This document shows positions 31,445-52,449 of a stretch of DNA of 64,000 bases, in pieces. The notes below the pieces were generated by a model. It did no database searches and was not told where the DNA came from. It saw nothing but the letters and a program-made list of their open reading frames with translations. Every line of letters starts with the position of its first letter. The stretch's first letter is position 1. The position numbers and the translations under genes are program-made. The stretch comes from an uncultured Muribaculaceae bacterium (GTDB lineage Bacteria > Pseudomonadota > Alphaproteobacteria > Rs-D84), in NCBI GenBank assembly GCA_964619545.1, contig CAZUED010000001.1, positions 49,898-113,897 of the forward strand, written 5' to 3'.

Positions 31445-32881
31445 TTGCACAGCAATATGCGCGGAAATTTTTTGCTGCAAGCTTTGCTGGCAATCGCCTT
31501 GGTGATGTCATTTATGTCTTTTATGGCGCCAAAATTAGCCGCGCGAAAAAGTGATGCCACCATGGCTGCAATTGCACGCCAGACAGAAACTGCTGCCCGC
31601 GCAGCTCGGCAATTTGTCCGTGCCAACAAGTCAAGCATTGTTTATGGTCCACGCACCATTTCAGGTGATGGATTTTCCGATTTGCTAGAACCTTTTGGTC
31701 TGCCATTGGGTTTTATTCCATTAACCACAGCACAACAAAAAATTTCGCTTTTGACATCAAAAAATGATTCTGGTGTTATTGCCTTGATAGTTTTGCAGGG
31801 TGGTAAAATTTCAGATGTAAAGCGTCATGAATTAATGTCTCGAATCGGGCCCGAGGCTGCAATTGCGGATGATGATGGATTGTTACATGGAATTGGGGGA
31901 TGGGAAAAATCCCTTAAAGATTTTGGTATAAAACCAGATACATCAGCCGTTTATATGCTGGTTCCTGCAGATGATGATTTTTCAGAATTGATCAGACGTA
32001 ATGCTAATGATTTATCAAGAAATAAATTTCATATTGACCTTTCTATGGCAGGTATGTCTATAAAAAACATCACATCACTTTCTGCAAGGAATGCAGAACT
32101 GGGCACCGCAAACTTTGGAACTTTATCCATAACTGGTTCCAGCGACGAGAGAAAGTTTAAGAACAAGATAGATTTAGTATCCGCCACGCGCGCAGTATTT
32201 CAGACACGCGATGGTGCAAATGCTTTGAACATTTCCAGGGGTGATTTAAATGCAAAATCATTATCCGCGCAAACTCTTTTCAGATATGGAATTCCAGGCT
32301 CGGTTGATGCTGGGTCAACTTCAATCAATTCATTATCAATGGCTGTCGGTCGATCAGGATTTATAGGAATGTATGATTGGGATGTTCACAGCGATGTAAT
32401 TTTAAATAATGTTTCTATAGATACTGAACATCTTGAAATAAATGGATTTGTGAATGCTTCGCGTGGTCAGGATGTATTTATTGATAAAGATGAATTAACA
32501 TATTCAACAAAAAGTGGGGTCGAGACAAGAAAACTTACTACCGCATCAATAACTTTACGGGACCAGGTTTCCAGCGCATTGCTTTCTGGATCTGATGGCT
32601 CTGTAATTCTTGACATTCGTCCAGCAGGTGTTTCTGTTTTAACAGATGTTTTATCCGACAGCATAAATAACGACGCATTTGAGATACTTAAAAACCCAAC
32701 CGCCGATGATGGTGCATTAATTGGTTGCAGAAATGTAATTTCTGCTTTGCCATCGGCACCTGCATACAATTCCAAATCCGCTGCGCAAAACATAGTATGC
32801 CAATTTGTTTTCTGGCAACGTCTTGAGCGTCGTATAAACATAAAGCAGTGTATGCTAGACGGGGGCAGCAATTGCGGATGA
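31445..32881 (+). CDS. Large prepilin-like protein A (478 aa): short leader MHSNMRG, then a hydrophobic NFLLQALLAIALVMSFMSFMAP segment
   Basis: TTG start with a strong SD AGGAGGG 7 nt upstream. Has a class-III signal-like N-terminus and a beta-rich remainder; paralogous to the next two genes. Confidence 0.5.
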   Translation: MHSNMRGNFLLQALLAIALVMSFMSFMAPKLAARKSDATMAAIARQTETAARAARQFVRANKSSIVYGPRTISGDGFSDLLEPFGLPLGFIPLTTAQQKISLLTSKNDSGVIALIVLQGGKISDVKRHELMSRIGPEAAIADDDGLLHGIGGWEKSLKDFGIKPDTSAVYMLVPADDDFSELIRRNANDLSRNKFHIDLSMAGMSIKNITSLSARNAELGTANFGTLSITGSSDERKFKNKIDLVSATRAVFQTRDGANALNISRGDLNAKSLSAQTLFRYGIPGSVDAGSTSINSLSMAVGRSGFIGMYDWDVHSDVILNNVSIDTEHLEINGFVNASRGQDVFIDKDELTYSTKSGVETRKLTTASITLRDQVSSALLSGSDGSVILDIRPAGVSVLTDVLSDSINNDAFEILKNPTADDGALIGCRNVISALPSAPAYNSKSAAQNIVCQFVFWQRLERRINIKQCMLDGGSNCG

Positions 32882-34176
32882 TGAATAAATTAAAGTTTTT
32901 TTATAATAAATATATTATGGGTGAAAAAAATTCATCCCATGTAATTCATTATTCATTAACTTGTCAGCGGGGTGCTGGATTGTTAGAAACTTTGCTGGCA
33001 ATCGCAGTTGTTGGTGCAGTTCTACCCTTTGCTTATACCAGTGCTATAGATATGAGTCACAGTATTGCAGATACTGCCGAGGCTAATCGGGTTCTGGCAT
33101 GGCATGATCCTGTGATGGCATATGTTCGTAAGAATCAGTCAGATTGGCCGCAAACGGCACAAATAGAATTTGACGAAGAGGAAGTTGTTATTATGGGGAC
33201 TGGAGACAACAGATTATTGTATCCATATGCCGGGTTTATTGAAAAGCGTCAGGGTTCCGGCGGTTCGGTTATAAATGCATATTTAGCATTTCGCCCAGTT
33301 GGTATAAATGAAATCCGCGTTGCAAACATTGCAAAAAATCTGGGTTCTGATGCTGCTGTTGCCAGCAATGGTGGGAATGCATCCAGCTCTGCTGGATGGA
33401 GCATTTATTCCGAGCTATTTACAGATGGTGATTTGATTTTTAGAATTTCTGACATTTTGGGTGATGATGATGCATACAAGTATTTGCACAGAACTTATTT
33501 GGACGATCCAGAATTAAACACAATGCGTCGTGATTTGGATATGGCAAAAAATAGCATTTTTGACATTGGGAAAATAACAGCGCAAACATTGAATGCTACA
33601 AACTCGAAACTTTGGTTTATTGAAACTCCACATATTCAGACGTCCGAAATTTATTTTCCCGAAGGATCGTCAATTGATGCGTCTAAAGCTGTCTTTGGTT
33701 CGGTTAATGTGAACGGAGACGTTAATGGACTGCGAAAAATTACGGCTGGAAAATTAAAAGGCGCTGCCGTACTTGCTGGTTCGCAGTGGTCTTCACGTGG
33801 CGATGTTGTAGTAGATTCAGTAAATGTAAATGGGCCTGTTAATGTTCAGCGAGACATGGTGGTGCGCGCAGAAAGTGCGCGCAGTATAAGTGGTTTCGCC
33901 GGTGTGCGTGCAAATTCCGTTGCAACGCCATATATTTTTGCAGATCAGATGTTTTTTGCCAGTGGTTATGGGATAACAATTTCAAGTGAGTTGTTATATT
34001 CTTCTACTGGTGTACCAATAAAATTAGGAAATTGGAGCTTTCCATCAACAAGCAGTCCAAAGTTTTCCACGCTGACATTGTATAAATCCAATGGAAAGGA
34101 ATTAGGCCAAGTATTGGGTGTTCCAAATACCAAAGATGTTGCGTCGATAATGAGAAGTGGATGGAAAAATCTGTGA
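32878..34176 (+). CDS. Large prepilin-like protein B (433 aa): 32-aa leader MMNKLKFFYNKYIMGEK...CQRG, then AGLLETLLAIAVVGAVLPF
   Basis: ATGA overlap with gene A. Has RG followed by x4-E and a ~20-aa hydrophobic stretch; the C-terminal GSVNVNGDVNG...VNVNGPVNV repeats suggest a beta-helix. Confidence 0.5.
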   Translation: MMNKLKFFYNKYIMGEKNSSHVIHYSLTCQRGAGLLETLLAIAVVGAVLPFAYTSAIDMSHSIADTAEANRVLAWHDPVMAYVRKNQSDWPQTAQIEFDEEEVVIMGTGDNRLLYPYAGFIEKRQGSGGSVINAYLAFRPVGINEIRVANIAKNLGSDAAVASNGGNASSSAGWSIYSELFTDGDLIFRISDILGDDDAYKYLHRTYLDDPELNTMRRDLDMAKNSIFDIGKITAQTLNATNSKLWFIETPHIQTSEIYFPEGSSIDASKAVFGSVNVNGDVNGLRKITAGKLKGAAVLAGSQWSSRGDVVVDSVNVNGPVNVQRDMVVRAESARSISGFAGVRANSVATPYIFADQMFFASGYGITISSELLYSSTGVPIKLGNWSFPSTSSPKFSTLTLYKSNGKELGQVLGVPNTKDVASIMRSGWKNL

Positions 34177-35537
34177 ATCATAAATTAAGGAATTTTTATA
34201 ATAAATATATTATTGGTGAGAAAATTTCACCAGATGTAACACACCATTCACGTGGCGGGATGATGTTGGAAATACTTTTGTCTTTGGCTATTGCTGCGGC
34301 CGCATTGCCTTTTGTTCTGCGGCAATTAGATAATCGTACGCACCGCGCTGAAAATGTAAGCATAGCGCGCGACATTGCTATGACTCGTGATGCTTTAGAA
34401 CGTTATATGGATGCGCGGAAACGCGAATTATTGGCGCCAACCGGATCATTCGTTACGCGTGTTAAAATGCGCGATCTGATTGAATACGGAAACATTCCAA
34501 AAAATTATGACAAGTTCCAAGCCCGTATAATAAAATCCAGGGATGCAAACGGCCATGCTGTTTTATCAGGTATGGTTATATTTGACTCTGCGGATATATC
34601 ACCAGTGCGAACACGGGAAATTGCAGAACTTGGTGGACAGGGTGCTGGATTTGTAGAACGAAACGAAGCATACAGCGCATTCGGAACATGGCGTAGTAAG
34701 ACAAGTATTTTTGATGCGCAATTTGGCAAGGATTCGGTAGTAGAAAGCACAGACACAATTTTGTCTGGTGGTGACTTTCTTTGGAGATTGCCTTCGAATG
34801 AGCCACTAGACGGATCAATGGCCAGCGATTTTTCTATGGGTGGTAATAATATAAATGACGCAAAGCAAATAGATGCGTATAGCGCAGATTTTAGTGAGAT
34901 TTTGCATGCGGATTTAATTTCCGCCAGAAAAGTTCAGATTACACCTCGTGCAAATTTTGAATCGGCATTAGTTGTATCGGGCGAAGCCCTGGTAATGGGC
35001 GCAATGACATCTGATTCAAGAAATGCGACAATAGGCTCGGAAGTTTTTTTAACTGGCCAGGCGCGTATATCCAGACTGGACACAGGCGAGCTTTGGGTCG
35101 GCGATCTGAATCTGAATGGGCTTTCTATTGGTGGAAGCGAGAAACCTGGAATTTTGAAAGTTGGTCAGACCATAGACATTACTCGCGGCCGTATAACGGC
35201 GCGTACGGCAACTATTGGATATAGCGGTTCAGTTGCACCAAAAATTTCAGTGACCGAACGTATAGAAGATTCAGGCAATCAAGCATATTATTGGGACTTG
35301 AAATCTGGGGATGCCAAGTTTTTTGATGTTTCTGCAGGGCAGCTTAATCAAATGATGAAAAATGCAATTCGCGCCGAATCAAAAAGTCCAAAAACAACTA
35401 CAGAAACAATAATTAATCAAGTTGCCGCAAATAATAATGCGACCATTTCAGATTACGCACGTGCATTGGGCGAAATACAAAGCAAGGTTATGATGAAATA
35501 TAACCGCTTGAAATTAGAGCAAGCCGGTGTAAAATAA
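34161..35537 (+). CDS. Large prepilin-like protein C (458 aa): leader MEKSVNHKLRNFYNKYIIGEK...HSRG, then GMMLEILLSLAIAAAALPF
   Basis: Overlaps the gene B stop. The leader motif KL+xFYNKYI(I/M)GEK is shared with gene B. An alternative GTG start at 34173 gives MNHKLRNFYNKY. Confidence 0.5.
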   Translation: MEKSVNHKLRNFYNKYIIGEKISPDVTHHSRGGMMLEILLSLAIAAAALPFVLRQLDNRTHRAENVSIARDIAMTRDALERYMDARKRELLAPTGSFVTRVKMRDLIEYGNIPKNYDKFQARIIKSRDANGHAVLSGMVIFDSADISPVRTREIAELGGQGAGFVERNEAYSAFGTWRSKTSIFDAQFGKDSVVESTDTILSGGDFLWRLPSNEPLDGSMASDFSMGGNNINDAKQIDAYSADFSEILHADLISARKVQITPRANFESALVVSGEALVMGAMTSDSRNATIGSEVFLTGQARISRLDTGELWVGDLNLNGLSIGGSEKPGILKVGQTIDITRGRITARTATIGYSGSVAPKISVTERIEDSGNQAYYWDLKSGDAKFFDVSAGQLNQMMKNAIRAESKSPKTTTETIINQVAANNNATISDYARALGEIQSKVMMKYNRLKLEQAGVK

Positions 35538-35542
35538 AATAT

Positions 35543-36028
35543 ATGAAAGTTGCTTGTCCTTTTTGTAAAGTAGAGTATTGTGTGCGAAATCAAAATTGCC
35601 GGTTGTTTCAATGCGCAGTTTGTGGTTGCACATGGCGTGCACCATCGCGTGAGAAAAATTCGCGAATATGGATTTTTCTTTTGTCGTGTTTTGTTTTATT
35701 GTTAGCAGTTTTTTCTTTAGTTGCTTTATTGCTTTGGATACCGCACACTAACGAGGCATTGTCAGTCCGGATGGATTCGGCCGTGCGCGCTGATGAATTT
35801 TTGATAGTGTCAGGCGTTGTTTCTAACAAATCGGAAAAATTATATGGCGTTCCAGATTTGATTGTATCAATGAAAGATAATCGGGGCGTGGAAATTTCAT
35901 CTCAAAAATTCTCGCCACCTACACCATTATTAGATTCAGGTGAAGAAGCGGACTTTTCAGTCCAGGTTCGAAATGTGCCGGTAGGGGTAGATAAAATTTC
36001 GGTGAAATTTAATAATACAGGAAATTAA
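35543..36028 (+). CDS. MJ0042-type zinc-ribbon / DUF3426-like membrane protein
   Basis: CPFCKVEYCV...CAVCGCTW zinc ribbon, then a TM helix, then a ~90-aa C-terminal domain. Confidence 0.45.
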   Translation: MKVACPFCKVEYCVRNQNCRLFQCAVCGCTWRAPSREKNSRIWIFLLSCFVLLLAVFSLVALLLWIPHTNEALSVRMDSAVRADEFLIVSGVVSNKSEKLYGVPDLIVSMKDNRGVEISSQKFSPPTPLLDSGEEADFSVQVRNVPVGVDKISVKFNNTGN

Positions 36029-36030
36029 CA

Positions 36031-36501
36031 ATGATTAAAATACTCAACAAATTCTTAGTTGCATTTATCCTTTTTAATTTTGCCGCGCATGCTGATAATG
36101 TTGTGTTACAAAGACCAAGTATATTTTCCACCAGCACAGATTGGGAAAGCATTACAGGTTTGCGATACGGCCAATTTGATTTGTCTTTTATCAGGGATAA
36201 ATCAATCGGGAATAATGGGATAGAGTTATATTTTCTAGATGGTTTTCCGTGTATAGGTCAGGCGCAAACTGCGCGTGCATGGATTTCGCCCAGCAAAATT
36301 TCAGGCGCAGATGAATATGTAAAAATGTATATCAGCTGTGTGCAGCGTCCGACAGAATTACGTTTTGCATGGCGCGAAGCTGCACGTCAAGATTATCAAA
36401 GTCGGACCACAGGAATTATGACTTGTAATATAACAGGACAAGGCCGTTTAATTCCTATTACATTGAACGATTGTGTTAAGGGGAAAAACTGGGATGAGTG
36501 A
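36031..36501 (+). CDS. Secreted hypothetical protein (signal peptide, 4 Cys)
   Basis: N-terminal LVAFILFNFAAHA signal; no recognised domain. Confidence 0.35.
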   Translation: MIKILNKFLVAFILFNFAAHADNVVLQRPSIFSTSTDWESITGLRYGQFDLSFIRDKSIGNNGIELYFLDGFPCIGQAQTARAWISPSKISGADEYVKMYISCVQRPTELRFAWREAARQDYQSRTTGIMTCNITGQGRLIPITLNDCVKGKNWDE

Positions 36502-44842: not shown

Positions 44843-46204
44843 TTATTCCTCTAAATACTCGCGCAGTTTATCACCAGAAATTTTTGGTGTTCTTGTTGCT
44901 TCGCCGGGCTCTACTATTGAAACAACTCGTGGGCTCATAAACACAACCAACTCTGCAAATGGATTTATCAATGTTTCGGGTTCGGTCACAAAGCTGTGTG
45001 TTGGAATTCCAATTATCACATAGTTATCACCCAGGCTGGATGGAACATTAAAGTTTGCCAATTCCCCATCGCTGGTGCGAAGTGTTATTTTAGCATCAAG
45101 TTTTACCATGTCTGCATACTGACCATACTTTCCAGTCGCGCCAACAATCAAGTCCGTTTCCAATCTGTCCTCGCGGGAACACTGACCAATGTCAAATCTG
45201 CTTTGCCAGCCATTTGGTATTACAAATGTTCCTTGGGAAATTAAAACTACATTAGCTTGTTGTGATAAGAATGATTGTAATGTTTTTGTGTTTATCTCTG
45301 GGGACACCACCAGTAATCTGCCAACTACGCCAGGTATCGACATTTTTACATTGTCATCACCGAATGCTGGCAACATATTCATCCATACTATCGGATTATC
45401 AGTGCGTGGATATACGCGATATACATCCATGTCCCATGCAACTAGGAATTTTTTGTTGCCGACATCTGCAACAATTGCGCGAACTTCGCGTTCGGTTTGA
45501 TAATTTCCCTCGAATACCAGGGTTTTATCCTGCCAGTTAGTAAGCAGATTTCGCAATTCAGCACCACGCATTGCATCGATCAACGCCATTATCATATGCT
45601 GGTCTTTTGGCATTTTCATCAGCCATTTTCCGCGTGATGAAATCCGAATTTCCTTGGCATCGTCATCATAAGAGTAATAAACTTTTCCCAATTTGCAGAT
45701 AAGCTCTACAGCGTCTTCCAATGTTCCGGATTTAATTTCTCCGCTAATCAGATCTGGCATATTGTCGGATACAACTACTTTTATCTTGGTTCCTTTTAAA
45801 AGGTTTTCTAAAACATCTGGGACATTCTTTTTCTTGAATGCAAAATCTTCGACGTCAAAATCAGGCAGATTATCGCCCTTGTTCAATCGCACGATTTCAA
45901 CAGGTTGTGCCGGGATAACAGACATTATATTTTGGTTATCCCAATCAACTTTACATCTTTTTGGAAGGTCTATGGCAAAACGCCGTGCGGTATCAGTTGT
46001 CAATCCAGCTTTGCGTGGAAATATAGGAACTGAGTATTCATCTACAATTGTGTTTTCAACAACCTCTATCGTATCGTATTGGACCTGATTTTGCTGACGC
46101 ATTTGTGTGCATCCAGCAAGTACAAGGCACAGAATACATGTCACAGGTAATATTTTTATATATTTTATATTCATTGTTGGTTCCTTGTTTCTATGCTTTG
46201 CCAT
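44843..46204 (-). CDS. Secretin-like outer-membrane lipoprotein (Secretin_N-like plus C-terminal secretin motif), co-operonic with lolCD
   Basis: Lipobox LVLAGC; N-domain-like NVPDVLENLLKGTKIKVVVSDNMPDLISGEIKSGTLEDAVELICKLGKVYY; C-terminal ETLINPFAELVVFMSPRVV resembles the secretin ELVIFVTPRIV signature. The likely true start is MNIKYIKIL at 46174. Confidence 0.5.
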   Translation of the reverse strand: MAKHRNKEPTMNIKYIKILPVTCILCLVLAGCTQMRQQNQVQYDTIEVVENTIVDEYSVPIFPRKAGLTTDTARRFAIDLPKRCKVDWDNQNIMSVIPAQPVEIVRLNKGDNLPDFDVEDFAFKKKNVPDVLENLLKGTKIKVVVSDNMPDLISGEIKSGTLEDAVELICKLGKVYYSYDDDAKEIRISSRGKWLMKMPKDQHMIMALIDAMRGAELRNLLTNWQDKTLVFEGNYQTEREVRAIVADVGNKKFLVAWDMDVYRVYPRTDNPIVWMNMLPAFGDDNVKMSIPGVVGRLLVVSPEINTKTLQSFLSQQANVVLISQGTFVIPNGWQSRFDIGQCSREDRLETDLIVGATGKYGQYADMVKLDAKITLRTSDGELANFNVPSSLGDNYVIIGIPTHSFVTEPETLINPFAELVVFMSPRVVSIVEPGEATRTPKISGDKLREYLEE

Positions 46205-46212
46205 TATGCATT

Positions 46213-46520
46213 TCAGATGTTCATAACCTTTTCGAATTCTTCCAAAGTCATTTCATAGATTGGTTTGTTACTGGGGGTTGTTAAATTTTTCATACCTTGA
46301 AATTCTGTGTTATATTTTTTTACCAAAGCTTTTAATTTAGCGTCACCAGTATTTAATTTTTCCCCGTATGCGTTCAGCATTTCCAATATATCTGCTGCAA
46401 AAAATCTTCCTACGTAATTCTCGGGTGCTATACCGCCTTTTTGGGTGCGAACAGCCGCCGACAAAGTTTTTAATGCCTCATAAAAACCTGCTATTCTGAT
46501 GTATCTTTCTTCGGCGGTCA
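46213..46520 (-). CDS. Hypothetical acidic protein (~102 aa), first gene of the secretin-like/lolCD operon
   Basis: ORF starting at MTAEERYIRIAG; the upstream extension overlaps a neighbouring gene. Confidence 0.3.
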
Positions 46521-46669
46521 TCTGCTTCTCCTTCCTGGACTGCATTATAAACTTAAAACATTTGCTTTCGCAAGTCCAAAAGGATGACGGATTGATAATA
46601 AAAGGCAATGGACAAAGCGCAGATAAATTTAGATTGCCAAGAATTGTATTTTTAGTTTATAATTTGATT

Positions 46670-47056
46670 GTGAAAAAAATATGTGCCTTATGCCTTGTTC
46701 TGTATGCATTGTCAGGTTGCTCGTCTGCCAATCGTGGTTCCATTGACGATGCGACGGTTTTAAATTGGGAAAATGATGCCGTAACCACCGAGCAATTTGT
46801 CCGTGATCATAAAAGTTGCCTGGGGGTGACGCGTCCGGCCCATATGCCACGTTCTAGACTTGCAAAACTTATCAGCCCGAACCAGTCCGGATTGATGCCC
46901 GATTGGGATGGTTTATGGGTTACATTTCAATCAAATGAAAGTCCTGATACGGGCCAGCGCTCGCTGATGTCTGTGCCGCCAAATACCAGCGCTCGGTCGG
47001 TCGGGTCATATCGTAGATGCATGATGAGACGTGGTTATTTATTAAGAGCTTATTAG
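46670..47056 (+). CDS. Small lipoprotein (GTG start; VKKICALCLVLYALSGCSS lipobox)
   Basis: Classic lipoprotein signal peptide. The tracked ATG at 46499 would overlap the divergent gene. Confidence 0.4.
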   Translation: MKKICALCLVLYALSGCSSANRGSIDDATVLNWENDAVTTEQFVRDHKSCLGVTRPAHMPRSRLAKLISPNQSGLMPDWDGLWVTFQSNESPDTGQRSLMSVPPNTSARSVGSYRRCMMRRGYLLRAY

Positions 47057-47134: not shown

Positions 47135-47821
47135 ATGAAAAACAAATTCCTGTTTTGGCTGTCGTTAGCCGTAGCGGTGTTGCTGGCGGTTTATCTTGGT
47201 GTGCGCATCAGCATGGTTCTGATGGGTGTGGGTGGGTCGCTGTCATCGGTAAAGAAAATTTCTGTACATTCCAGTAATGGTGAGGTTGCCGGTCTTATTT
47301 CGCGCCTGGGTATTGAACCTGGGGTTCGGCATGTTGATTTGGATCAGGCTTTGACGCGTATCGCGGCCGATCCAGATGTGGCAAGTGCCGGGGTGCGTCG
47401 AATGCCTAATGGCGAAATAAAAGTTCGTGCAAAAATGAGGGTTGTTATAGCCAGTTGGACAGATGGGGAACATTATTATCCTTTGGATGATACGGGTGCG
47501 CCGATAAATCGGCCATTGCCGGAAAGACCGGCAAATACTTTGATTTTTTCTGGTCAAGTCCCAAGCGACATTTCATCAGCTATAGCAGCATTAAAGCAGG
47601 CACCAGGGCTGTTTTATAGAATAGACAGAGTGGAGTTTGTAGAAGGCAGGCGTTGGGACATTTTTTTGCTGAATGGAATTCGTATTATGCTGCCCGAGGA
47701 AAATTTTGCCAGCGCTGCCGAAAAAATAGAAAAGCTGAATAAACAAAATATGATATTGGACAGACAAATAACACTTTTGGATTTGCGTGATCCAGCGCGC
47801 GTACTTGTAAAATTAAAATGA
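47135..47821 (+). CDS. ftsQ: Cell-division protein FtsQ (short POTRA-domain form)
   Basis: N-terminal TM helix, then VRHVDLDQALTRIAADPDVASAGVRRMPNGEIKVRAKMRVVIASW, a POTRA/FtsQ pattern; immediately upstream of ftsA. Confidence 0.7.
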   Translation: MKNKFLFWLSLAVAVLLAVYLGVRISMVLMGVGGSLSSVKKISVHSSNGEVAGLISRLGIEPGVRHVDLDQALTRIAADPDVASAGVRRMPNGEIKVRAKMRVVIASWTDGEHYYPLDDTGAPINRPLPERPANTLIFSGQVPSDISSAIAALKQAPGLFYRIDRVEFVEGRRWDIFLLNGIRIMLPEENFASAAEKIEKLNKQNMILDRQITLLDLRDPARVLVKLK

Positions 47822-49587
47822 ATCTGACAGATGGTGCATTTTTATGTTTAGACATTGGATCGTCCGGCGTTCATGCAGTTGCCGTACGTGTCAGTTTTGG
47901 TCGTATCAAAGCATCTGCAAATGCGTTTGTTGAATCAAAGGACGCAGTTTGGGCATTAAAATCATCGGTGGATAGCCTGGAAGAGCAAATTGGCGCGCGC
48001 TTTGACTCTGCATTTGTTACCGGAAATTTTGGTGCAATAAAGTCAGAAATTTTTTCGCGAAAAACATCATGGGCGTCTGAGCATAAAATTACCCCGCAAG
48101 ATGTTTTAGAGCAGGTGTCAGATGCAACCGAAGATGGATTTTCAATCTTACATATAATTCCGCTACGCTATGATCTAATCGGATTTCACAACATTGCAAA
48201 TGTGGTTGGACAAACTGATTGTGCCTTGCTTTCTGTGTTTCATTCAATTTCTTATTCTGATCAAGGATTGCTGCGGGCAAAATCTGCTTTGCATGGCGCT
48301 CATTTAGAGTCAGATGGATTTTTTGATCCATCATTTATTTTGGCGGCCAGTATACGTGAGTCTGCTGAATCATCCGTTTTTATAGATTTTGGTGCCCAGT
48401 TCACCAGTGTTTCACTTTGGACGCCCCGCGGACCAATGCTGATGGCAAAAGTGCCTTTGGGTGGTGCGCGTATTACAAAAGAAATTGCTAAAGCTTTTGG
48501 CGTGCCAGTTGCCGAGGCCGAACGACTGAAAATTTCCGGTATGACATTGATGCGTACGGATATGGATAGATTCACACCCAGCGATGCAAAGCATGACATT
48601 ACCAGATTTGAATTAAACGAGGTGACTGGTTCGGTATTTTCAGAAATCTTGGGTCAAGTGCATGATGTGTTGGACGCGGGAATACAAAAATACAATCCGG
48701 TAAAACTTTATATCAGCGGCGGCGGCGCACAAATTTCCGGACTAGACACAGTATTGGAAAAAGAATTTTCCATGCCAGTAAAAAACCTGGGCGCCTTTGG
48801 AATTGCCAGCGCATTGGCTGAATTTGTCTGGAACAATGAATCTTCGCGCGTTTCTGTTTATCTGGCGCGCAGAAAAAAATGGGATAAGGTTTTCGGATTC
48901 TTGTTCGCACCTTTGCGCTGGCGGTTAAAAACTGGGCGCAAGCGCTTGGTGCCAATTATGCCCAGCACTCTTGTGTGGGATATGCGTAATGGTACTACCT
49001 ATGCAAAATTTGCATCGGCGAATATTAGTATGATTCACGTTGATGTAATGGACGGATTTTATGTTGAAAAAATTGCTAGCGGAATTGACGAGCTTCGATT
49101 TATTCGTGCACACACAAAATCACATTTGCATGTTCATCTTATGACTGAAAATCCGGTCAGTTGGGCCGCGGAAGTAATTGAAGCCGGCGCAGATACAATA
49201 ATTGTTTCATCTGGAACTAATGGGGTGGTGCGGGCATTGCGTGAAATCCGGACCTCAGGTCGGCGTGCAGGAATAGCATTACATCCAAATACCCCATTGG
49301 AAGTAATTGCACCAGTGTTACGCGAAATTGACGAAGTTATGGTTATGTCTGTTGTTCCTGGGGCATCAGGACAATGTTTTATTGAATCTTCACTTTCTAG
49401 AATTGCGTCGCTTTATAATACCAGACGTCGTCATGGTTTGCATTTCAAGATCTCAGTTGATGGCGGAATAAATCCTGAGACAGCAAAAAAATGCTGGGCC
49501 GCAGGTGCAGATTTGTTGGTCGCGGGAAGCTTTCTGGCATCTGCCCCCGACTTTGCTGGCGCAGTTCAAGAACTGATCAGGAAATAA
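47818..49587 (+). CDS. ftsA: FtsA (actin-like cell-division protein) fused in frame to ribulose-phosphate 3-epimerase (Rpe); 589 aa
   Basis: N-terminal FLCLDIGSSGVHAVAV, ISGGGAQISGL and an amphipathic WDKVFGFLFAPLRW helix (FtsA membrane-targeting helix). This runs without a stop into IMPSTLVWD...IHVDVMDGFYV...VDGGINPETA (Rpe TIM barrel). Confidence 0.7.
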   Translation: MNLTDGAFLCLDIGSSGVHAVAVRVSFGRIKASANAFVESKDAVWALKSSVDSLEEQIGARFDSAFVTGNFGAIKSEIFSRKTSWASEHKITPQDVLEQVSDATEDGFSILHIIPLRYDLIGFHNIANVVGQTDCALLSVFHSISYSDQGLLRAKSALHGAHLESDGFFDPSFILAASIRESAESSVFIDFGAQFTSVSLWTPRGPMLMAKVPLGGARITKEIAKAFGVPVAEAERLKISGMTLMRTDMDRFTPSDAKHDITRFELNEVTGSVFSEILGQVHDVLDAGIQKYNPVKLYISGGGAQISGLDTVLEKEFSMPVKNLGAFGIASALAEFVWNNESSRVSVYLARRKKWDKVFGFLFAPLRWRLKTGRKRLVPIMPSTLVWDMRNGTTYAKFASANISMIHVDVMDGFYVEKIASGIDELRFIRAHTKSHLHVHLMTENPVSWAAEVIEAGADTIIVSSGTNGVVRALREIRTSGRRAGIALHPNTPLEVIAPVLREIDEVMVMSVVPGASGQCFIESSLSRIASLYNTRRRHGLHFKISVDGGINPETAKKCWAAGADLLVAGSFLASAPDFAGAVQELIRK

Positions 49588-49710
49588 AGGGTTGAAAAAT
49601 TAGTCGTTAAGTGGATTTTTAATTTTCTACTTTATATCTACTATTTTCTACTTTTTTATTTGTTATGTTTTTTCTTTTATGATAAAATGAAAGCATAAAA
49701 TGGTGGGAAT

Positions 49711-52449
49711 ATGAGAATAAAAAAAGCAATAATCGTTGGTTTGATGCTGCCTTTAGTATCTGAAATTTGCGCGATACCGGCGGGTGCTGTCAGCTATGTG
49801 AATACGCCGACCGCGCGCCCCAGCACTACGGCGCGTATGCCGACATTGTTGACAGGTTCAGTTGCCAGTACGGCTTATTCTACTGCGACTAATGCTGGAT
49901 TGGCTGCGACGTGTGCAAATCCATTACCGGAAAGGCTGACCTCTAACAGATGCATTGACAGATACGATTCGTGCCTGCGCCAAGAAAATGTCTGCGGCGA
50001 ACATTTTGAGCTGTGCTATAACTTAAAACAATTTAACAAGTCCCGCATAATGTGTCAGGATTATTTGGCACAATGTCCCGCCGAAGCAATCAAAGCCATC
50101 TTTGGAAATTCTGTTACAACATCGGATGATTTTTCCGCGGCGAACCGGGCGATGTGTGATGGCGAATCCGTTTTGATAAAAAGATCTTTTTCTCCATCAC
50201 TTGGTGACATTGCGGTCGCCGGTGATAGCAGAATAGACATCGCTATAAAAGAGGGTAGAAACTGGGCTGCTGCAAATAGCGTTAAAACTTGTAACAAAGC
50301 TGCTGATGTTTGTATTCAGAATGCTTGCCAAGGTTCTCCACAGAAATGTATTTCTTTGAATGGATTTTCAGATATAGACACGGCCGAGATGGTTAATATA
50401 GCAACAGCTGGCGAAACCACTTTGCGCTTGAATGCAAAAATGTTGGAAACTTGGATTTTCAATATGGGCTGGGATGACAGCAATGTAAAAAATTATCTGA
50501 AAGAGCAATGCCGTGAAACTATTGGTGCAAACGAATGGTGCTTTATGGTGACAAATGGCAAGCCAGCCAAGGAAGCAGACCTGGTTGATAATTTTAACAT
50601 CCAGGAAGTTTTCACAGACATTATGTATAATGGTGTTGGTGCCCGTTGGAAAATGTCACAATCCAAGATAAAAGAATGGGCGGCAGCTGCAACCAAAAAT
50701 TCTGTAGCGCAATGCCAGGCTGCATTGACCGATTGTGCAATTAATGCATGCGGTGAAGGATCGCGCGCACGGTGCTATGGATTGGCAAAAGATGGCAATT
50801 CGGTCAGTATAAAGAATAAAGCAGGTTCTGACATCGAAGGCCAATGCAAGAATTTGATAGAAAACAATCAATACTGCAAGGATGTTTTCCGTAACAAAGA
50901 AAATGGTTTGGATGGGGATGTCTGGACCCAGGTTTGGACAAATGATGTTATGGGGACCATAGTTGGTCTGGATTCCGATTTGCAAAAAATGTTTAACGAA
51001 GAGGCTGTGGCAGAAATGCGCCGTAGCTGTCAGGCTCAGGCTGAAAAATGTGTTATGGACGAATGCGGAAGCGATTTCTCGCGCTGCTTTATAACCAGCA
51101 GTGATGCTAAAAAGGCAGGCCAGGTTGCTTTTGCATCTGGCAAGGTAACCAGCAGTTTGTTTGCCGGCGGATTTGATGAAGCCTTGGCTCGTGACCTGTG
51201 CATACTGAAAGTAAAACAAGTCACAGATTGTAATGACTATTTTGATGTTCAATATGCAAAACAATCAAGTGGCAAAAGTGCTGATGCGTGGGCCACATCC
51301 AGCACGGCTCGTAATGCTTGGCTGGGCGCTGCGAACAGCACGACAGAAGACAATGTATGCCGAGTGACCGAAACCTATCTGGATAAATATGATGTTTCGG
51401 GCAATGCGATTGACCCAACGGTTAAGTTGGCGTCCAAGGTAAAGGTTTGCGCAGCCCAAGAACGCGGTATATTTGATGGATTGTTAGGCGATATAAACAA
51501 GCGCGCGAATTCGGTTCTAGAACGCGAAGCAAATGACATTAAAAACGCTTGTGAAAACAGCAATGTCAAGGGCTCGACCGCAAAAGATTATATCTGGGCG
51601 GCATTTGACGGGTTGGGCGGATCTGACGAATATAGTGGATTCAGTGAAGTTCGCGAAACAAGTAATCCGTTTGATGGATTCTGTGCAGTTCGTGTAACAA
51701 TTCGTTCTAATAATTCCAAAGTTGTCAGCGCACTTGGTGGTAATAAAACTATGTATTATGCAAAAGGCACAACTATGCCTTGCCTGGGCTTGACCGCGGA
51801 CGAGCTGGAAAAAGTCGAGCGCGCAGTTGCATCTGATGTAAGGTTCTGTGGTTCTGATGAAACAAATGCAACTCATGGCTGTGTAGAGAGAATGACAGGA
51901 TTGCAAAAAACCCTGAGTATAGGTGGCGCGACCTTGGGGGGCCTAGTTGTTGGTGGCTTGGGCGGGGTCATGGCTGGTAATGCGATACAGAATAAAATAA
52001 CCAGCTCGGGCAACAATCTCAGCGAGGCTGAACGGACTATATTAAACAATTGCAATTCTTGTTTGTCATCCCAAGGTGTTGGATTCAGCAGCAAAAACGC
52101 ATGCAGTTCTGCCAGTATGGGTGACAACGATGATGGCAAAAGCAATGTTGTTGCAAAAAATCTTTGCCAAGCAAAGGCGAACGAGCTGAATGCCAAGGCG
52201 AAAAAACAAACAAACAATCTGATGAACTTTGCCAGCACTGGCGGAATTACTGGGGCAAGTGTTGGTGCTGGATTGTTAGGTTTGACCGGCGGACTTTTGG
52301 CTGGTAATGCGATTGATCAAAATGAAAAGGATAAATTAGCAGAAGCCCGTCAGGCAGCCATAGATGATTTTAACGCTAAGACAGATATAAATTGTTATAT
52401 CGGCGGTAAAAAAGTTGCCGCGTATGGTTCAGATATGGTTATAAAATAA
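49711..52449 (+). CDS. Giant secreted cysteine-rich repeat protein (912 aa, 39 Cys) with two C-terminal glycine-zipper segments
   Basis: Signal peptide; three tandem super-repeats each carrying C-x6-C-x4-C-x6/7-C followed by C-x9/10-C; C-terminal LSIGGATLGGLVVGGLGGVMAGNAI and GGITGASVGAGLLGLTGGLLAGNAI. Confidence 0.55.
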   Translation: MRIKKAIIVGLMLPLVSEICAIPAGAVSYVNTPTARPSTTARMPTLLTGSVASTAYSTATNAGLAATCANPLPERLTSNRCIDRYDSCLRQENVCGEHFELCYNLKQFNKSRIMCQDYLAQCPAEAIKAIFGNSVTTSDDFSAANRAMCDGESVLIKRSFSPSLGDIAVAGDSRIDIAIKEGRNWAAANSVKTCNKAADVCIQNACQGSPQKCISLNGFSDIDTAEMVNIATAGETTLRLNAKMLETWIFNMGWDDSNVKNYLKEQCRETIGANEWCFMVTNGKPAKEADLVDNFNIQEVFTDIMYNGVGARWKMSQSKIKEWAAAATKNSVAQCQAALTDCAINACGEGSRARCYGLAKDGNSVSIKNKAGSDIEGQCKNLIENNQYCKDVFRNKENGLDGDVWTQVWTNDVMGTIVGLDSDLQKMFNEEAVAEMRRSCQAQAEKCVMDECGSDFSRCFITSSDAKKAGQVAFASGKVTSSLFAGGFDEALARDLCILKVKQVTDCNDYFDVQYAKQSSGKSADAWATSSTARNAWLGAANSTTEDNVCRVTETYLDKYDVSGNAIDPTVKLASKVKVCAAQERGIFDGLLGDINKRANSVLEREANDIKNACENSNVKGSTAKDYIWAAFDGLGGSDEYSGFSEVRETSNPFDGFCAVRVTIRSNNSKVVSALGGNKTMYYAKGTTMPCLGLTADELEKVERAVASDVRFCGSDETNATHGCVERMTGLQKTLSIGGATLGGLVVGGLGGVMAGNAIQNKITSSGNNLSEAERTILNNCNSCLSSQGVGFSSKNACSSASMGDNDDGKSNVVAKNLCQAKANELNAKAKKQTNNLMNFASTGGITGASVGAGLLGLTGGLLAGNAIDQNEKDKLAEARQAAIDDFNAKTDINCYIGGKKVAAYGSDMVIK

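Follow-up and report, generated by a model that had tools for sequence, protein, structure and literature searches.

When a reading frame in a metagenome runs from a homologue of the cell-division protein FtsA straight into ribulose-phosphate 3-epimerase (Rpe), does it encode one protein, or has the stop codon between two genes been lost or missed? The question is raised by a 64,000-nucleotide stretch of contig CAZUED010000001.1 (hereafter the window) from an uncultured alphaproteobacterium of the order Rs-D84. A single plus-strand open reading frame (ORF) at 47818–49587, beginning with an ATG at 47818 and ending with a TAA at 49585–49587, encodes 589 amino acids with no stop between the halves. 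Its product has three parts: an FtsA fold (residues 1–340), a basic, partly amphipathic linker (residues 341–378) and an Rpe TIM barrel (residues 379–589). Our analysis shows a genuine and ancient gene fusion kept by selection. It is best read as a bifunctional, co-translated FtsA–Rpe protein that was fixed in an ancestor of Rs-D84, and we give this reading a probability of roughly 0.78. To judge from the sequence, an FtsA–Rpe polypeptide of ~65 kDa is the conserved product of the locus. Both halves can be assigned to well-known families, on their folds and on Pfam thresholds; it is the combination that is undescribed. Full-text literature searches (FtsA with Rpe or epimerase fusion; Rs-D84; Enterousia) found no paper on an FtsA–Rpe fusion, and in public annotation the homologues are named only “ribulose-phosphate 3-epimerase” or “hypothetical protein.” The parts of the fused gene, with the observations that define them, are as follows.

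47818–49587, plus strand: the whole ftsA::rpe ORF, 589 amino acids plus stop (ORF list and sequence)
47818–48837, plus strand: FtsA-fold core, residues 1–340 (PF14450, TIGR01174 match, phmmer, Foldseek, ratio of nonsynonymous to synonymous substitution rates [dN/dS], invariant residues)
48838–48951, plus strand: linker, residues 341–378 (AlphaFold2 secondary structure, charge, tail length, dN/dS)
48946–48960, plus strand: candidate internal start codons, TTG at 48946, GTG at 48949 and ATG at 48958, the last encoding Met381 of IMPS (in frame, seen in the sequence)
48952–49584, plus strand: Rpe (beta/alpha)8 barrel, residues 379–589 (PF00834, NF004076, alignment with Protein Data Bank [PDB] entry 2FLI, Foldseek, dN/dS)
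49036–49038, 49042–49044, 49135–49137 and 49459–49461, plus strand: codons of the predicted metal/catalytic residues H407, D409, H440 and D548 (2FLI alignment)

Conservation of the fused reading frame

The same architecture recurs well beyond this assembly. A homologue search of 5.8 billion proteins with the fusion returned 556 matches; the best 120 of these, which were inspected, are 579–602 residues long and match with 98–100% query coverage and 45–93% identity, and nearly all of them carry both PF14450 and PF00834. The homologues come from separate NCBI, JGI, ENA and Logan assemblies, under the labels “Alphaproteobacteria bacterium” or “Rickettsiales bacterium.” Full-length fusions with 43–93% identity are also present at loci from 17 GTDB species (one genome per species), several of them Candidatus Enterousia. 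When only the FtsA part was used as the query, an exhaustive HMMER search covering 1.84 billion representatives gave 114 proteins at E ≤1e-10. In this search every full-length relative nearer than canonical FtsA is fused, with no unfused close relative found, and canonical FtsA proteins (380–460 residues) appear only at ~27% identity or less. Besides P0007, a known fusion, an Rpe domain was found on 23 of 149 representatives among the matches listed (contig-end fragments included), and the FtsA-part identity of these 23 is 27–41%. Seven more divergent homologues were traced to their contigs, six of them distant (25–31% identical to the FtsA part of the window) and the seventh being P0284. The fusion is present in all related loci examined, the 17 GTDB species and these seven alike.

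These comparisons bear directly on the origin of the ORF. The earlier note on this DNA, which was made from the sequence alone, had left room for an assembly error or a stop codon that was simply lost, and had proposed a comparison with orthologous loci, where separate ftsA and rpe genes would speak against a fusion. The outcome was the opposite: all of the loci are fused, and the same ORF persists down to 25% FtsA-part identity. Since no unfused intermediate was found, the comparison favors a real fusion. Selection points in the same direction. When the window is compared with its relatives at loci L017 and L001 by the Nei–Gojobori method, dN/dS is 0.08–0.11 in the FtsA core, 0.10–0.17 in the linker and 0.05–0.08 in the Rpe part, and values of 0.04–0.10 were obtained for four other species pairs. 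Purifying selection is strong on each of the three parts, none of which is decaying in the window's lineage. A pseudogenized FtsA remnant, which was also considered for this lineage, is ruled out by the value of 0.08–0.11 for the core.

The carriers of the fusion are uncultured, reduced-genome gut Alphaproteobacteria (order Rs-D84, Candidatus Enterousia and relatives). The published description places Enterousia in the uncultured order Rs-D84, gut Alphaproteobacteria with genomes of <1 Mb and no respiration, and reports that the genes of the non-oxidative pentose-phosphate pathway, except transaldolase, are kept in this order (PMC12306168). L001 and L017, the closest relatives of the window (fusions 87% and 93% identical, same gene order), were deposited as “uncultured Muribaculaceae bacterium” metagenome-assembled genomes; their gene content is clearly that of Rs-D84 Alphaproteobacteria, and the Muribaculaceae labels look misassigned.

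The position of the fusion behind a division gene is conserved as well. In the window it is preceded by

47135–47821, plus strand: ftsQ, 228 amino acids (Pfam PF03799 FtsQ_DivIB_C, 1.1e-11)

The ftsQ stop codon overlaps the start of the fusion by 4 bp (ATGA), which suggests that translation of the two is coupled. The order lolD–lolC–three hypothetical genes–ftsQ–fusion is kept across the 17 GTDB loci, with a downstream gene that varies. Six of the seven more divergent loci have an ftsQ with Pfam support immediately before the fusion, and five of these six share the 4-bp overlap; the 207-residue gene upstream of the fusion in L088 has no FtsQ match. The order in one deep lineage is ftsI–ftsQ–fusion.

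The two domains and the tail between them

An AlphaFold2 model of the fusion, built on a 57-sequence alignment, has a mean predicted local distance difference test (pLDDT) score of 89.9 and contains two confident domains with low-confidence helices between them. The folds of the model were compared with the PDB by Foldseek. That an FtsA runs in frame into an Rpe, as the earlier note had claimed, is borne out: the ORF is uninterrupted, and both Pfam domains and both folds were found.

In the N-terminal half, PF14450 covers residues 187–322 with a score of 50.9 bits, against a gathering score of 31.8. A phmmer search of the PDB recovers the FtsA structures 7q6f, 7q6g and 7q6d at E values of 6e-11 to 2e-9 (5.6e-11 for 7Q6F), and the top 19 Foldseek matches in the PDB are all FtsA, from Staphylococcus aureus, Xenorhabdus, Vibrio, Escherichia coli and Thermotoga. 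The FtsA structures align with the model over ~350–390 columns at target-normalized template modeling (TM) scores of 0.67–0.75, mostly ≥0.70. The alignment spans the whole FtsA fold, extra subdomain included: the model has the actin/ASKHA fold of FtsA, in which subdomain 1C replaces 1B. The core carries a phosphate-1 motif, LDIGSSG (D12 and G14), a variant phosphate-2 motif, DFGAQFT (D190), and an adenosine motif, SGGGAQ (G301–303), and residues D12, G14, D190 and G301/G302 are invariant in the 57 aligned sequences. Two further patches are conserved, HIIPLRYD in the 1C segment and MDRFTPAD in the 2B segment.

Like canonical FtsA (7Q6D/7Q6F, 1E4G/4A2A, 3WQT), the module combines an actin-like fold and extra subdomain with phosphate-1 and adenosine motifs, is encoded directly after ftsQ, and has a tail similar in length and in hydrophobic/basic character. 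Unlike canonical FtsA, its core is ~40 residues shorter, its tail is internal and is followed by a 211-residue enzyme domain, and ftsZ does not lie downstream. Two other identities for the module were considered and rejected, the type IV pilus protein PilM and a sugar kinase of the same superfamily, which beside Rpe would be metabolically plausible: FtsA ranks first in all searches by sequence and by structure, and the neighboring gene is ftsQ. PilM (5EOX, 2YCH, 3JC8) does show weak hidden Markov model and structural similarity to the N-terminal half, but its TM score of 0.55 is below those of the FtsA structures, and the fusion has no pilN, pilO, pilP or pilQ neighbors.

In the C-terminal half, Pfam PF00834 (Ribul_P_3_epim) covers residues 382–572 with 156.7 bits against a gathering score of 21.1 (E 6.5e-46), and the NCBIfam rpe subfamily model NF004076 scores 182.6 bits, above its cut-off of 165. 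The Rpe of Streptococcus pyogenes (2FLI) superimposes on this part with a TM score of 0.92, a root-mean-square deviation of 1.4 Å and 36% identity, and phmmer matches it at 9e-41 over residues 5–214. In a residue-level alignment, H407, D409, H440 and D548 fall on H34, D36, H67 and D176 of 2FLI, which we take to be the metal ligands and acid/base residues of that enzyme. All four are invariant in the 57 aligned sequences, as are the glycines of the PGxxGQ and DGG loops, and the phosphate-binding loops of the window's domain read PGASGQ, DGG and AGS. On the strength of these residues, the barrel is probably a working Rpe in the window's lineage. With stand-alone Rpe proteins (2FLI, potato 1RPX and human 3OVP) it shares a complete barrel, the phosphate loops, the His-Asp-His-Asp set and the cushions formed by Met; it differs from them in lacking a start codon of its own, with strand β1 continuing from the FtsA tail, and across the group in having VEK or VDR for VPN after β2 and PGA(S/A)GQ for PGFGGQ. 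No donor of the Rpe domain could be named: the best unfused relatives are ~40% identical and scattered (Acidobacteriota, Hyphomonadaceae, Firmicutes and others).

Between the two domains, AlphaFold2 predicts helices at residues 342–362 and 364–370, with low pLDDT over residues 361–380. Within the linker, the hydrophobic/amphipathic stretch KKWDKVFGFLFAPLRW precedes a basic cluster, RLKTGRKRLV, and in 114 homologues the last 20 residues before the junction have a net charge of +4 to +10, with a mean of +7.3. The FtsA part is exactly 378 residues long in 74 of these 114, so that the position of the junction is almost fixed. From the GGG adenosine motif to the start of Rpe the median distance is 77 residues (quartiles 77–78); from the same motif to the C terminus of 100 canonical FtsA representatives it is 84 (quartiles 81–86). 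Because these distances are close, the fusion appears to have kept the whole FtsA tail. Rpe strand β1, PIMPSTL (canonical IAPSIL), comes almost directly after that tail, ~10 residues on, and the tail length and the immediate onset of β1 therefore fit the loss of a stop codon between neighboring genes.

As judged from its length and position, the linker occupies the place of the C-terminal membrane-targeting tail of FtsA. The earlier note had gone further and described a complete though compact FtsA with a C-terminal helix that looks like its membrane-targeting sequence, WDKVFGFLFAPLRW. The first part of this description holds, in that the FtsA fold was found, with phosphate-1 and adenosine motifs and a variant phosphate-2 motif, and the segment is present; but it does not stand out, as its amphipathicity is moderate and like that of other helices of the protein. 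The hydrophobic moments of the linker are similar to that of the E. coli membrane-targeting sequence, yet they are also similar to those of ordinary helices of the fusion protein. Given these moments and a sequence that varies among homologues, binding of the linker to the membrane is at most plausible.

Origin, possible function and competing explanations

How could such a protein have arisen, and what might it do? Under the fusion reading, rpe would have come to lie directly behind ftsA in the ancestor of the reduced-genome gut Rs-D84; the ftsA stop codon would then have been lost, and a complete FtsA with a basic amphipathic tail would have read on, through ~10 residues, into Rpe β1. The resulting ~65-kDa polypeptide would be coexpressed with FtsQ by way of the 4-bp overlap. 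Its N-terminal module would still serve as the actin homologue of the divisome at the inner membrane face, the former membrane-targeting tail would now link the two domains, probably without having lost its affinity for lipid, and the Rpe barrel would supply the non-oxidative pentose-phosphate step. Were FtsA held at the membrane, Rpe would sit there too, and its active site should stay open because the junction lies, from general TIM-barrel architecture, on the N-terminal side of the barrel, away from the catalytic face. The barrel probably also has a structural part in the fusion, in folding, stability or oligomerization. Membrane binding, FtsZ tethering, enzyme activity and coupling of the two functions are all points that we infer from sequence.

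If the fusion does couple its two functions, the nearest functional analogy would be with UgtP of Bacillus subtilis, OpgH of E. coli and GdhZ and KidO of Caulobacter, metabolic enzymes that bind FtsZ in a metabolite-responsive manner. These are separate proteins, whereas here the enzyme would be covalently attached to FtsA, and it belongs to the Rpe family. The prevailing view is that FtsA can hold the Z-ring on the membrane only if its C-terminal amphipathic helix is free, and the fusion is surprising for cell-division specialists because its FtsA tail is not C-terminal. It may be regarded as a natural experiment on what the FtsA tail tolerates, in which a 23-kDa enzyme has long been carried behind the helix across a whole order. 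It may also represent a physical link from central carbon metabolism to division in minimal-genome, partner-dependent gut bacteria. On a practical level, the FtsA half has been overlooked in annotation, and automated surveys will therefore score Rs-D84 as lacking FtsA, which can mislead reconstructions of its cell biology; recognition of the fusion is thus useful for annotating Rs-D84 genomes.

Several observations weigh against the reading of a bifunctional FtsA–Rpe fusion. The FtsA part is very divergent, with ~15–20% identity to solved FtsA structures, and it scores 75 bits with the NCBIfam ftsA equivalog TIGR01174, below the cut-off of 175.85; the PRK09472 model gives 32 bits against a cut-off of 409. 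Its phosphate-2 motif reads DFGAQFT (DFGAxFT across the group) rather than DxGGGT, and both D12 and D190 are gone in the deep lineages P0141, P0145 and P0151, which keep the Rpe tetrad; because of these two features, ATP binding by the FtsA half is uncertain. The peak hydrophobic moment of the window's linker, 0.46, is not above that of ordinary Rpe-barrel helices, the linker sequence is poorly conserved across homologues, and to our knowledge there is no tested FtsA precedent for a membrane-binding helix that lies inside the protein, with a 23-kDa domain behind it. On the Rpe side, the score with the equivalog TIGR01163 (166.4 bits) is below its cut-off of 212.6, and VEK and PGASGQ stand in place of the canonical VPN and PGFGGQ. 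A weak GGTG lies six bases before ATG 48958 and pairs at −5.1 kcal/mol in this strain. Finally, the evidence on ftsZ, and on the fusion as the sole ftsA and sole rpe, covers loci rather than whole Rs-D84 genomes.

Two further explanations concern the role of the barrel, and they draw on lineages in which its active site has decayed.

L081/L082, 10001–11770; L083, 5415–7187; L089, 4568–6295: decayed-site fusions (AT-rich members, full length, same gene context)

P0136 and P0284 are two species, 75% identical and with the same synteny; 14 members make up the P0136 cluster, and their contigs reach 198 kb. Both carry the substitutions H407Y, D409T and D548C and have lost PGxxGQ; the FtsA nucleotide motifs are lost too. 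In the P0136 lineage, the FtsA part has a dN/dS of 0.39 and the Rpe-like part one of 0.21; at 81% identity, the latter is more conserved than the FtsA core. P0133, a singleton known from one 10.6-kb contig, has H407N, H440N and D548Y and a deletion of PGxxGQ in an Rpe-like domain of full length. P0133 and P0136/P0284 cluster on a neighbor-joining tree, possibly through long-branch attraction, and their substitutions differ at all four positions. By these sequences the decayed fusions are candidate pseudoenzyme forms, and such dead-site lineages provide a test case for an enzyme domain kept as a pseudoenzyme. That the dead domain stays fused suggests an additional, structural role for the barrel in the fusion; alternatively, these very AT-rich lineages may be caught in ongoing decay.

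One explanation built on these lineages holds that the Rpe barrel is an integral part of the division membrane anchor, either as an oligomerizing element that clusters FtsA tails or as a sensor through which division follows pentose-phosphate status, with ftsZ possibly unlinked or missing. It would account for a fusion kept where both active sites have decayed, and we regard it as unlikely, if worth keeping in mind. A plainer version, which we think quite unlikely, sees the barrel mainly as a structural or oligomerizing appendage that, for example, clusters membrane tails, with catalysis secondary or dispensable. P0136/P0284 and P0133 do keep a full-length domain stripped of its metal/catalytic residues and phosphate loop, and in the P0136 lineage the dead domain is still constrained. 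Moreover, solved Rpe structures are oligomeric: 2FLI was deposited with 12 chains, and its Rpe forms hexamers. However, the tetrad and the phosphate loops are strictly conserved in almost every lineage, that of the window among them, as expected of a working enzyme and needless for a scaffold, and the exceptions amount to one contig for P0133 and to degenerate lineages that are AT-rich, fast-evolving and perhaps simply decaying.

A different explanation questions the other half. Here the N-terminal module would no longer be a working FtsA but a scaffold descended from one, perhaps without bound nucleotide, that anchors or regulates Rpe or has some other role with FtsQ; tethering of the Z-ring would fall to other proteins or be absent. 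The scores far below the FtsA equivalog cut-off and the non-canonical phosphate-2 motif are in keeping with this, as is the loss of D12, D190 or GGG in several deep lineages of the fused group. So is the distribution of ftsZ. The FtsZ signature GG[GS]TG[ST]G occurs in none of the six frames of the whole window, and no ftsZ was found within ~10 kb by a motif scan of the 17 GTDB loci or in the gene tables of the seven further loci. The only genomic description of Rs-D84 mentions MreB, RodA and MrdA, and the terms “FtsZ” and “cell division” are absent from its main text (PMC12306168). Against this stand the group-wide occupation of the ftsA slot after ftsQ with a coupled start (and after ftsI–ftsQ in one deep lineage), best structural matches to FtsA over its full length including 1C, strong purifying selection, the conserved patches in 1C and 2B, and a tail that is FtsA-like in length and charge. 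On balance we consider a non-FtsA scaffold improbable. The ftsZ searches also bear on the claim of the earlier note that ftsZ does not follow the fusion and that the ftsQAZ unit is broken. The first statement agrees with what was found both here and at the related loci. The second is true of the window but describes no peculiarity of this genome: because no ftsZ lies near the fusion at any locus examined, the broken unit is the ancestral state of the fused group as a whole.

It is also conceivable that the shared frame is incidental and that free Rpe is released, by initiation at 48946–48960 or by proteolysis of the linker, leaving FtsA alone. The TTG, GTG and ATG codons that the earlier note pointed out near the junction are indeed present and in frame, pairing at the GGTG before ATG 48958 falls in the range of real starts in the window (median −3.5 kcal/mol), and the low model confidence of the linker suggests that it is probably exposed. 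However, pairing at −4 kcal/mol or lower is found by chance at 24% of internal codons, and the GGTG is absent already in L001, whose fusion is otherwise so close. Residue 381 is encoded by ATG in 7 of 18 genomes, by TTG in 6 and by TTA in 5 (5 of the 17 related species), with no conserved purine-rich Shine–Dalgarno sequence upstream of this codon, and no promoter-like site was found near the junction of the window, where site counts equal those of shuffled sequence. A conserved internal start for free Rpe is ruled out by this variation in the codon and by the want of a conserved Shine–Dalgarno sequence or a promoter above shuffled background, and with it the suggestion that the locus is designed to make both a fusion and free Rpe; minor internal initiation at ATG 48958 may occur in this strain. 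In a group this old, a stop codon between the halves would also be expected to have reappeared, and none was seen in the exhaustive search with the FtsA part. We therefore hold the free-Rpe explanation to be very improbable. Last, the true genes might be separate, with the ORF produced by a mistake in sequencing or assembly or by a stop of ftsA that this one genome lost very recently. Such a suspicion is reasonable at first for an unusual metagenomic fusion whose halves have independent homologues, but the comparisons refute it: the ORF recurs across four repositories, in hundreds of assemblies made independently, down to 25% identity, with a near-fixed junction and a linker that is itself under purifying selection.

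Neighboring genes

Downstream, the ftsQ–ftsA::rpe unit is bounded by the following features.

49588–49710, plus strand: AT-rich intergenic spacer (23% G+C), which marks the end of the ftsQ–ftsA::rpe unit and contains a weak promoter-like site at 49660–49688
49711–52449, plus strand: cysteine-rich gene of 912 amino acids (no Pfam or NCBIfam match)

The next gene is thus the cysteine-rich giant that the earlier note had seen in the place of ftsZ. Its product has a signal-peptide-like N terminus, 39 cysteines (4.3%) and, toward the C terminus, two Gly-rich hydrophobic segments at residues 734–756 and 840–865. Among related loci it was found only in L001 and L017, with 69% and 94% identity, and from this distribution it appears to be a recent, fast-evolving addition downstream of the fusion.

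Upstream, three hypothetical genes without a Pfam match lie between lolC and ftsQ, at 44843–46204 and 46213–46608 on the minus strand and at 46499–47056 on the plus strand. The 17 GTDB loci keep the same three-gene order, as do five of the seven more divergent loci that were traced. Lipoprotein-type signal sequences are apparent in two of the three products (LAGCTQ and LSGCSS), and the small protein encoded at 46499–47056 (~125 conserved residues) is 65–80% identical where FtsQ is only 35–43% identical, a striking degree of conservation for a gene beside the division genes. Elsewhere in the window, at 31445–36501 on the plus strand, five consecutive ORFs (478, 442, 458, 161 and 156 amino acids) have no Pfam match at E ≤0.001.

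At more distant loci the surroundings differ. In the deep lineage P0157 (L088, 5104–9862), the fusion is immediately preceded by lpxK–lpxC and three genes without annotation, with no ftsZ; in E. coli, lpxC comes after ftsZ. Type IV secretion genes (VirB4/TrbE, VirD4/TraG-like and T2SSE ATPase) occur within 10 kb of the division locus in distant members of the group (L085, 19486–21716; L087, 1–309 and 4848–6998; L088, 1786–4212), which fits the partner-dependent lifestyle proposed for these bacteria.

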